From IMG/VR virus record IMGVR_UViG_3300043788_000063: a stretch of 37,152 nucleotides of DNA, one strand, 5' to 3'. Within the stretch, counting starts at the first letter, position 1. Every line of letters begins with the position of its first letter. Shown here piece by piece: positions 632 to 1,360 of this stretch. The notes below the pieces were generated by a model, which was not told the origin of the DNA, did not search any database, and saw only the letters and a program-made list of their open reading frames with translations. The position numbers and the translations under genes are program-made. The stretch is from a virus.

Positions 632-959
632 GGGATTCGTGGTCAACGATCCCGAACACTTGGACGCCCAGCGCCCCGGCTACGGCATGTACGACACGCA
701 GGACAACTGCTGGCTTGGGGACGACACGGGACCGAAAGTGTTCACCATTGAAGACTCCGCTAAAGCGAACGGGCTGCCGCACAGGCTCTTGGCTCAGATC
801 GCAGCGCAGATGGTGGAAGTCCAGCTAGGCTACACCCCCGGCAGAGTGGAAGTGCGAGAGTTCAACGCGCCGAATCTCCGGCTGAGAGACCAAGTTCAGA
901 CCCGAATGACGCCGCTTGAGGCTCTGATCAAGCTGGAAAACGGAGACACCGACCTGTGA
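624..959 (+). CDS. Hypothetical protein (112 aa)
   Basis: ATG 624 overlaps the upstream stop (ATGGCTGA). The ORF track 504..959 is in the same frame. Confidence 0.45.
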   Translation: MAEGFVVNDPEHLDAQRPGYGMYDTQDNCWLGDDTGPKVFTIEDSAKANGLPHRLLAQIAAQMVEVQLGYTPGRVEVREFNAPNLRLRDQVQTRMTPLEALIKLENGDTDL

Positions 960-1360
960 GGATTGAGAAGATATTCATGGCGGCTGAGTCAAACACCCAA
1001 CTGGGGCGGCTGGTGGGTCCGTTCAATTCTGCGCCCGAGGCTGAGATACGAGCAGCGGAACTGGGTTGGGGCTGGGTCGTCATCTACGCTAACGCCGTGA
1101 ACGATGCAGGCAAGGTCGTAGACGTACAGAAGCGGTACTACCAGCCCGCCAAGCCAGCCTTGCCCGCACGTGCTCCCAGCCGCACGCCGGAGGAGTTGGC
1201 AGCGCTTCGGCACAATCTGTCAACGCCTGATCCGAAGCCGCTGAACCACGAAGAGATTGAATTCTTCGCACAGTACGAGAAGCAGATGCAACCGGAGCCT
1301 GCCTCAAGACTGGATTTCGGAAAGTTCAAGGCGGAAATAAAGAGGCGCATCAATGGCTAA
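956..1360 (+). CDS. Hypothetical protein with a C-terminal FFAQYEKQMQ motif
   Basis: GTG 956 overlaps the upstream stop (an alternative ATG lies at 977). The C-terminus EIEFFAQYEKQMQPEP recurs at the C-terminus of the 22968..23579 product. Confidence 0.5.
   Translation: MRIEKIFMAAESNTQLGRLVGPFNSAPEAEIRAAELGWGWVVIYANAVNDAGKVVDVQKRYYQPAKPALPARAPSRTPEELAALRHNLSTPDPKPLNHEEIEFFAQYEKQMQPEPASRLDFGKFKAEIKRRING

Follow-up and report, generated by a model that had tools for sequence, protein, structure and literature searches.

Genes and phage character of the window

The window, meaning the whole stretch of 37,152 nucleotides that was analyzed (56.6% G+C), carries two small forward-strand genes whose products share a short conserved peptide. 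The gene for protein A (134 aa) occupies positions 956..1360 (+) and the gene for protein B (203 aa) positions 22968..23579 (+). For A, the choice of the GTG at 956 as start codon is supported by a conserved N-terminal IE+IFMA in homologues. Neither A nor B nor their neighbours gave a Pfam or PHROG match above cut-offs. Adjacent genes of both gene strings overlap by their start and stop codons (GTGA and ATGA types), at 956-959, 1353-1360, 22968-22971, and 23956-23959, and A and B are therefore probably translationally coupled to their neighbours. These overlapping neighbours encode proteins of 151 and 239 aa in the case of A, and a protein of 139 aa in the case of B. A methionine aminopeptidase gene (23959-24687, +) lies directly downstream of B and of a gene for a 121-aa zinc protein, in an order that is conserved. 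Just upstream of the operon that contains B, the gene at 22012-22533 (+) encodes a 173-aa protein with a signal-peptide-like N-terminus and Gly/His-rich repeats (GGxxHGG...).

To judge from profile matches, the clearest evidence for the phage nature of the element is a tandem of rIIA-like (765 aa, phrog_612, E=1.5e-105) and rIIB-like (458 aa, phrog_609, E=1.8e-67) genes at 31336-35022 (+). The window also encodes a Ku homologue (35239-36204, +), an amino-acid permease (17460-18761, +), an N6/N4 DNA methylase (18806-20335, +), and a C5 cytosine methylase (20620-21576, -). An array of 15 tRNA genes at 11915-15655 (+) comprises those for Trp, His, five Arg (with five different anticodons), three Asn, four Lys, and Gln. 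Within it lie an HNH endonuclease-like ORF (14158-14703) and, at 12112-12645, a short ORF with 89% identity to a gene that has elsewhere been annotated as a fragment of a His-tRNA synthetase.

Five genes downstream of A, both in the window and in two related loci (L006 and L042), is a gene for a major-vault-protein (MVP)-like protein of 820 aa (4019-6481, +; MVP_shoulder E=3e-25, Vault_3 E=5e-10), for which no PHROG match was found. This protein is 84-94% identical among related contigs, on which A is 56-60% identical and the neighbouring genes are far more diverged. Among phage proteins, it is unusual and under strong constraint.

Metagenomic contigs that reach 447,784 and 894,233 bp carry homologues of A and B in a shared gene order, and the window and its relatives represent a clade of uncultivated huge phages. 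Among the deposited phages of INPHARED, tblastn searches with A and B returned no match; a search of deposited phages with a 402-aa neighbour matched distant phages of ~60 kb only. Similarly, a scan of the IMG/VR viral contigs for the motif described below yielded only five unrelated chance matches, and the clade was therefore judged to be absent from that collection.

The peptide shared by proteins A and B

In protein A, the peptide DPKPLNHEEIEFFAQYEKQM is encoded at 1229..1288 (+), with its core, from the conserved Pro to the conserved Met, at 1238-1288, and it stands within the stretch ...PDPKPLNHEEIEFFAQYEKQMQPEPASR... (longer excerpt, ...STPDPKPLNHEEIEFFAQYEKQMQPEPASR...). In protein B, the corresponding 20-mer, RVSPLSTSETDFFAEYEKQM, is encoded at 23502..23561 (+), near the C-terminus; its core (23511-23561) is followed by QEPQS and the stop codon, and the protein closes with ...RVSPLSTSETDFFAEYEKQMQEPQS (longer excerpt, ...SRVSPLSTSETDFFAEYEKQMQEPQS). 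Both peptides are therefore located in the genes to which the original prediction had assigned them, 956..1360 and 22968..23579. A six-frame regular-expression scan of the window revealed no copy of the motif beyond these two.

Several comparisons agree on the resemblance. BLASTP between A and B gives an alignment that is confined to the tail region (pairwise E=2e-6). When all 52 proteins of the window were compared with one another by BLASTP, A and B formed the top pair between different proteins (E=1.5e-4), followed by a pair at 0.011. Alignment of the two family profiles with hhalign superimposes 23 columns, and nowhere else, with a probability of 96.9% and E=1.5e-10; the shared columns read dvkPLs-eE--FFA-YEkQM. 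The globular parts of the two proteins, in turn, have different predicted folds, alpha-beta-beta in A and three helices plus a zinc ribbon in B. The observation of a motif common to A and B is thus confirmed: it is real, and stronger than first noted.

The extent of the shared unit differs, however, from what had been proposed. The sharing of a 13-residue block was correctly recognized, but the unit is longer, with 17-20 residues, and takes in a P-[LM] anchor further upstream as well as the Glu that begins the helix. Its consensus is P-[LM]-x3-E-x2-[FW]-F-x2-[YLF]-E-x-[QE]-M, and the module common to A and B is P-[LM]-x3-E-x2-F-F-x2-Y-E-x-Q-M. Likewise, the description of a C-terminal peptide holds for B but not for A, where the motif is internal and followed by 23 residues. 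In this respect the A protein of the window is unlike many of its homologues, in which the motif is C-terminal. The end of A (1300-1357, +) encodes a basic helix, ...FKAEIKRRING, which is a second conserved element in the A subfamily of the window and is missing from many A homologues, namely those with a C-terminal motif.

It had been proposed that absence of the motif from homologues of the two proteins would refute the docking interpretation; both families were found to keep it. In the A family, it forms a conserved island, ...P-[LM]-x-x-[ED]-E-x-x-F-F-A-x-Y-E-x-Q-M, in 8/8 close and 10/10 distant homologues, and the linker that precedes it may be only a few residues long or contain poly-Ser or Gln-rich insertions. 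For B, 78 homologues were recovered, down to 40% identity, and the island ends all of the ~75 full-length members; the few B proteins that do not have it are apparently truncated fragments. In an alignment of 60 B homologues, E187, F191, and E195 never vary, and F190 and M198 are almost invariant. The linkers of both families vary in length and composition and include poly-Ser and Pro-rich stretches.

The two proteins, and every other carrier family described below, have the same general layout, in which a variable linker separates the module from a preceding globular or zinc-binding domain. In protein A, a small alpha-beta-beta domain (GPFxSAxEAExxAxxLGWxWV) forms the N-terminus, and a Pro-rich linker connects it to the motif, which is followed by the basic C-terminal helix. 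In its AlphaFold2 model (pLDDT 69), the motif is a helix (residues 91-103) and the best-scoring block. Protein B begins with a three-helix domain, continues with a long helix and a zinc ribbon (CPVC...PPRCxxC), and closes with a disordered linker and the terminal motif; in the model (pLDDT 81), residues 159-180 of the linker are of low confidence and the motif is a helix (residues 185-199) with a pLDDT of ~87. The motif is thus tethered by a linker and predicted to be helical, in both models as a confident helix beside linker of low pLDDT. Its conservation follows one face of that helix: over 113 distinct instances, the information content of the 12 helix positions has a moment of 0.35 at 100 degrees, against at most 0.12 at 80, 120, 160, and 180 degrees and 0.26 at the neighbouring 90 degrees. 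E1, F4, F5, Y8, E9, Q11, and M12 are located on this face, and positions 2 and 7 and the flanks are the most variable. The net charge of the motif is ~-3, and 2 to 71 residues separate it from the C-terminus.

PDB sequence searches with the motif profile and with the A and B family profiles yielded nothing meaningful, and Foldseek found no significant PDB fold match for protein B. For the globular parts of A and B, no family or fold was recognized in Pfam, PHROG, or the PDB. The motif itself, which is likewise free of Pfam, PHROG, and PDB matches, is apparently undescribed.

At the DNA level, A and B are identical at 27/30 positions (90%) in the 10-codon core and at ~74% of positions across 13 codons, so that the ~70% given in the original prediction needs correction, even though its conclusion that conservation acts on the protein stands. 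The identity in the core could be taken to indicate a nucleotide-level feature, either a DNA or RNA signal or a patch of recent gene conversion, or else plain chance, with a peptide that has no function; in addition, the version of the motif found in the A of the window and in P0003, EFFAQYEKQMQ, is nearer to B than is the LFFAsYEvQML of other A homologues. However, 7/8 synonymous choices are identical between A and B, which has a P of ~0.07 under the codon usage of the window, so that codon bias can account for the match with no need to invoke a DNA repeat or a recent conversion. Homologous loci, moreover, use different codons at the conserved residues (TTC/TTT, GCA/GCG/GCT/GCC, TAC/TAT, GAA/GAG, and CAG/CAA). 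As the residues stay fixed while their codons vary synonymously, selection acts on the peptide and not on the DNA. For these reasons, a DNA repeat or a recent gene conversion was rejected. Since the motif also survives 40% sequence divergence, is present in at least three families, and is recovered by the profile-profile comparison at the E-value given above, a nucleotide-level or chance origin is effectively refuted.

Distribution of the motif among protein families

The original prediction had suggested a motif search across related phages, and this search returned A, B, and a third family, C. The motif profile was run exhaustively with HMMER against 1.84 billion representative proteins, which gave 25 matches at E<=1e-3, namely members of A and B, the protein P0098 (family C), and two others. 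The latter two look fortuitous, one being a repetitive eukaryote-like protein and the other a 3495-aa protein without a matched stretch. A word-indexed protein search with the 43-residue motif alignment returned one B fragment only. P0098 (118 aa) combines a coiled-coil/acidic region with a CxC...CxxC element and terminates in ...KPLNPEETNFFAQYEEQMKIKDKE. Its gene shares a 3.7-kb contig (L007) with a B gene and is located downstream of the methionine aminopeptidase gene.

A degenerate DNA pattern corresponding to P-x4-E-x2-FF-x2-YE-x-QM was also scanned over metagenome contigs, which revealed 31 loci. In 31/31, a small protein carries the motif in its C-terminal part, followed by no more than 71 residues. 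Family A accounts for 12 of these loci and family B for 14, two of which are very distant (L023 and L029). Family C is represented by one locus (L016); three loci (L027, L037, and L039) encode a ~80-aa ribbon-helix-helix-like protein, here called family D, and one (L043) encodes a 189-aa protein, family E. Against a motif HMM built from A and B only, the tails of C score 30-39 bits and those of D and E 22-33 bits, compared with 9-12 bits for decoys that have the same core pattern. The scores of the 5209 ORFs of all related loci fall into two groups, one at 14 bits or more and one at fewer than 5. In the 596 Gb of GTDB genome contigs, the DNA scan gave only two chance-like matches; given this rate, one of D (three related loci) or E (one locus) could be fortuitous. 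Relatives of D and E were looked for in viral contigs, and none were found there. A, B, and C are therefore regarded as secure carriers of the motif, and D and E, on their scores, as probable ones.

Family C provides direct evidence that the tails are exchangeable modules, as its body occurs with either of two of them. The C homologue of the window (24930-25379, +) has the coiled-coil/acidic region and the CxC...CxxC element and matches P0098 by BLASTP at E=8e-16, in the body only. Its tail, GDEVTWLENLWKLEDGRKKKK (about 25314-25376), is conserved and amphipathic and is of the WLExLWKL type instead of the FF motif. Comparison of the tails of 12 C members indicated that 10 others share the WLExLWKL tail of the window, whereas those of L007 and L016 carry the FF motif; the genes in L007 and L016 occupy the same genomic position as the window gene, downstream of the methionine aminopeptidase gene. 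Among the loci examined, the WLExLWKL tail is confined to family C, and it was rejected as a second widespread motif. The FF motif, for its part, is modular across families.

The D proteins end with KPMxGNERLFFRPYEKQMR, and each is encoded directly upstream of a tyrosine recombinase (L037, 6786-7034, -; L039, about 8150-8400, +; L027, about 830-1080, -). A resolvase is also present in L037 and L039, and a tRNA-Thr gene is nearby in L039. With ~57% G+C, the D contigs are similar to the phage window. These loci look like integrative elements of bacterial chromosomes, and they may point to the host of the phages. D itself has a weak NikA-like match (E=0.0017), which is below the Pfam cut-off.

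A putative docking helix and the known systems it resembles

The motif has the generic features of a short linear motif: it is a conserved island in a variable or disordered region, it is found on unrelated proteins, and its flanks are less conserved. The most probable explanation, in our view, although well short of certain, is that the block represents a modular short linear interaction motif, a helix that docks several proteins on a common partner. The proposed module would be a three-turn amphipathic acidic-aromatic helix, E-x-x-F-F-x-x-Y-E-x-Q-M, with a Pro-[Leu/Met] anchor four residues ahead of its first Glu, and a flexible linker of variable length would tether it to otherwise unrelated small proteins of this clade of huge phages. 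Its conserved face (Glu1, Phe4, Phe5, Tyr8, Glu9, Gln11, and Met12) would dock in a groove of the partner that is both hydrophobic and basic. We infer that the motif binds a protein and that this partner is common to all carriers, in which case a single shared partner would allow several different phage proteins to be recruited to the same hub, in the manner of the interchangeable hydrophobic-acidic tails of T4 gp33, gp55, and gp43 on the gp45 sliding clamp.

The carriers look like small nucleic-acid-binding or regulatory proteins, a description that is based on the cysteine patterns of zinc ribbons, two automatic JGI names, and the weak NikA-like match of D. Because zinc ribbons are present in B and C and a ribbon-helix-helix-like fold in D, the hub would most likely be part of the transcription or replication machinery, of either the host or the phage. 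If D is genuine, a hub encoded by the host would be favoured.

Other functions have been considered for the helix. Since one and the same linker-tethered tail is found on several unrelated small proteins, as in cargo proteins, the tail could be a targeting or loading signal that delivers its carriers into a container built by the phage, either the procapsid, for co-injection, or an intracellular shell; the very conserved 820-aa MVP-like protein of the clade is, furthermore, encoded close to A. We consider this unlikely. Nothing but its proximity to A ties the MVP-like gene to the motif, and no capsid, scaffold, or protease context was found near A, B, or C, while D, if genuine, is located beside integrases in apparent bacterial integrative elements and not in a virion-forming phage. 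The known vault cargo signal, the INT domain, is a domain of ~160 residues and not a helix, which also counts against such a role. More specifically, the tail could be a cargo address that loads small DNA-binding or regulatory proteins into a vault compartment formed by the MVP-like protein (4019-6481). This idea draws on the proximity of the MVP-like gene to A and on its strong conservation, and appears highly improbable; if it were true, a bacterial virus would possess a vault-like compartment and a targeting code specific to it.

With its conserved aromatic face, the amphipathic helix could also pack against itself, and the carriers do co-occur in one genome, with both copies of the motif in the window. 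The carriers might accordingly associate through their helices, in homo- or hetero-oligomers, and A, B, and C would then form one complex without a hub. This is quite unlikely, since a single 12-residue helix with a net charge of ~-3 is poorly suited to associate with itself, the conserved polar residues E1, E9, and Q11 suggest a basic, complementary surface on a partner, and the upstream P-[LM] anchor is typical of peptides that bind in a groove. Finally, the usual position of the motif near the C-terminus, past a disordered linker, would suit a degradation or turnover tag, read by a protease or adaptor of the host or the phage, that limits the lifetime of early proteins. However, both the distance of the motif from the C-terminus (2 to 71 residues) and the residues that follow it are variable, which implies that the signal does not include a free C-terminal carboxylate, and conservation on one helical face is more typical of stable docking. 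To our knowledge, the motif resembles no ssrA-type or other C-degron, and a turnover tag is very unlikely. The C-degron and the membrane-targeting helix were both rejected as candidates, because the motif lies at varying distances from the C-terminus and has a net negative charge.

As far as can be told from sequence, the motif would act like a docking motif, which is a known kind of device. Huge phages consist largely of small proteins that have no recognizable function, and a portable, conserved peptide "address" offers an experimental handle on them, as a 20-residue bait could find the hub of this clade, whether it belongs to the host or to the phage. The presence of the motif would also place proteins that cannot otherwise be annotated in one functional network. 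If the hub were the clamp or RNA polymerase, the "toolbelt" coupling of transcription and replication in T4 would extend to an unrelated, uncultivated lineage; and if the motif on the integrase-associated, ribbon-helix-helix-like D is genuine, different mobile elements of the same hosts would use the same hub.

The docking interpretation of the original prediction is supported in part. It had compared the motif to clamp-binding and SSB-tail motifs; the layout that this implies (a domain, a variable disordered linker, and a helix conserved on one face) was found, but the analogy extends to architecture and not to sequence. The bacterial beta-clamp motif (QL[SD]LF/QLxLxL) and the PIP box (Qxx[LIM]xx[FY][FY]) plug into a hydrophobic pocket of their hub with a terminal aromatic or hydrophobic pair, and both are found on many unrelated proteins. 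Here, however, no Q-L precedes FF in the 113 distinct instances, in which the three preceding residues are E(112/113)-x-[D/E], and if FF is placed at positions 7-8 of a PIP box, position 4 is an invariant Glu and position 1 is S/D/N/K. In the acidic tails of T7 gp2.5 and gp4 and in the SSB tip (DDDIPF), essential aromatic residues allow different replication proteins to dock on a common partner. Those tails are largely unstructured tips at the extreme C-terminus that end in Phe, whereas the present motif is predicted to be helical, is followed by 2-71 residues, and has Met, not Phe, as its last conserved residue.

Phe-Phe in an acidic context is also a property of two eukaryotic peptides. In the Rev1-interacting region, a short N-capped helix presents FF to a pocket of its partner, the Rev1 C-terminal domain; FFAT (EFFDAxE) binds the MSP domain of VAP in an extended conformation and requires D4/A5. 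The sequence D-F-F-A-E-Y-E is superficially like EFFDAxE, and this likeness is to be read as an analogy only: positions 4 and 5 are here A and E/Q/x, the segment is predicted to be helical, and the FFAT and Rev1 partners are eukaryotic, whereas the present element is a phage that carries bacterial-type genes and tRNAs. Encapsulin cargo-loading peptides and T4 capsid-targeting sequences similarly combine a short conserved peptide, a flexible linker, and unrelated cargo. They differ from the motif in consensus, and no shell, capsid, or encapsulin context was seen for the present carriers. Overall, the sequence of the motif matches none of the known hub-binding motifs with which it was compared (bacterial clamp, PIP box, SSB tip, and FFAT).

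The organization of the T4 late transcription and replication proteins is more similar. The unrelated proteins gp33, gp55, and gp43 end in highly similar short hydrophobic-acidic segments, and their linkers are divergent in sequence and length (PMC7892883, PMC2988020); in gp55 and gp33, the clamp-binding motif is joined to the body of the protein by such a linker (PMC7892883). These tails are interchangeable and bring proteins of transcription and replication to a single hub, gp45 (PMC7892883, PMC2988020), and a clamp-binding tail also tolerates an internal position (PMC2988020). The motif described here is longer (17-20 residues), is predicted to be helical, and has an upstream P-[LM] anchor. 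A and B have no sequence match in Pfam, PHROG, or the PDB, and, since Foldseek found no significant PDB fold match for B, nothing links B to gp33 or gp55. Late transcription and replication in T4 form the closest described system, and the resemblance, which is architectural only, is one of working principle and no proof of membership: in both, a short hydrophobic-acidic segment on a divergent linker is common to several proteins.
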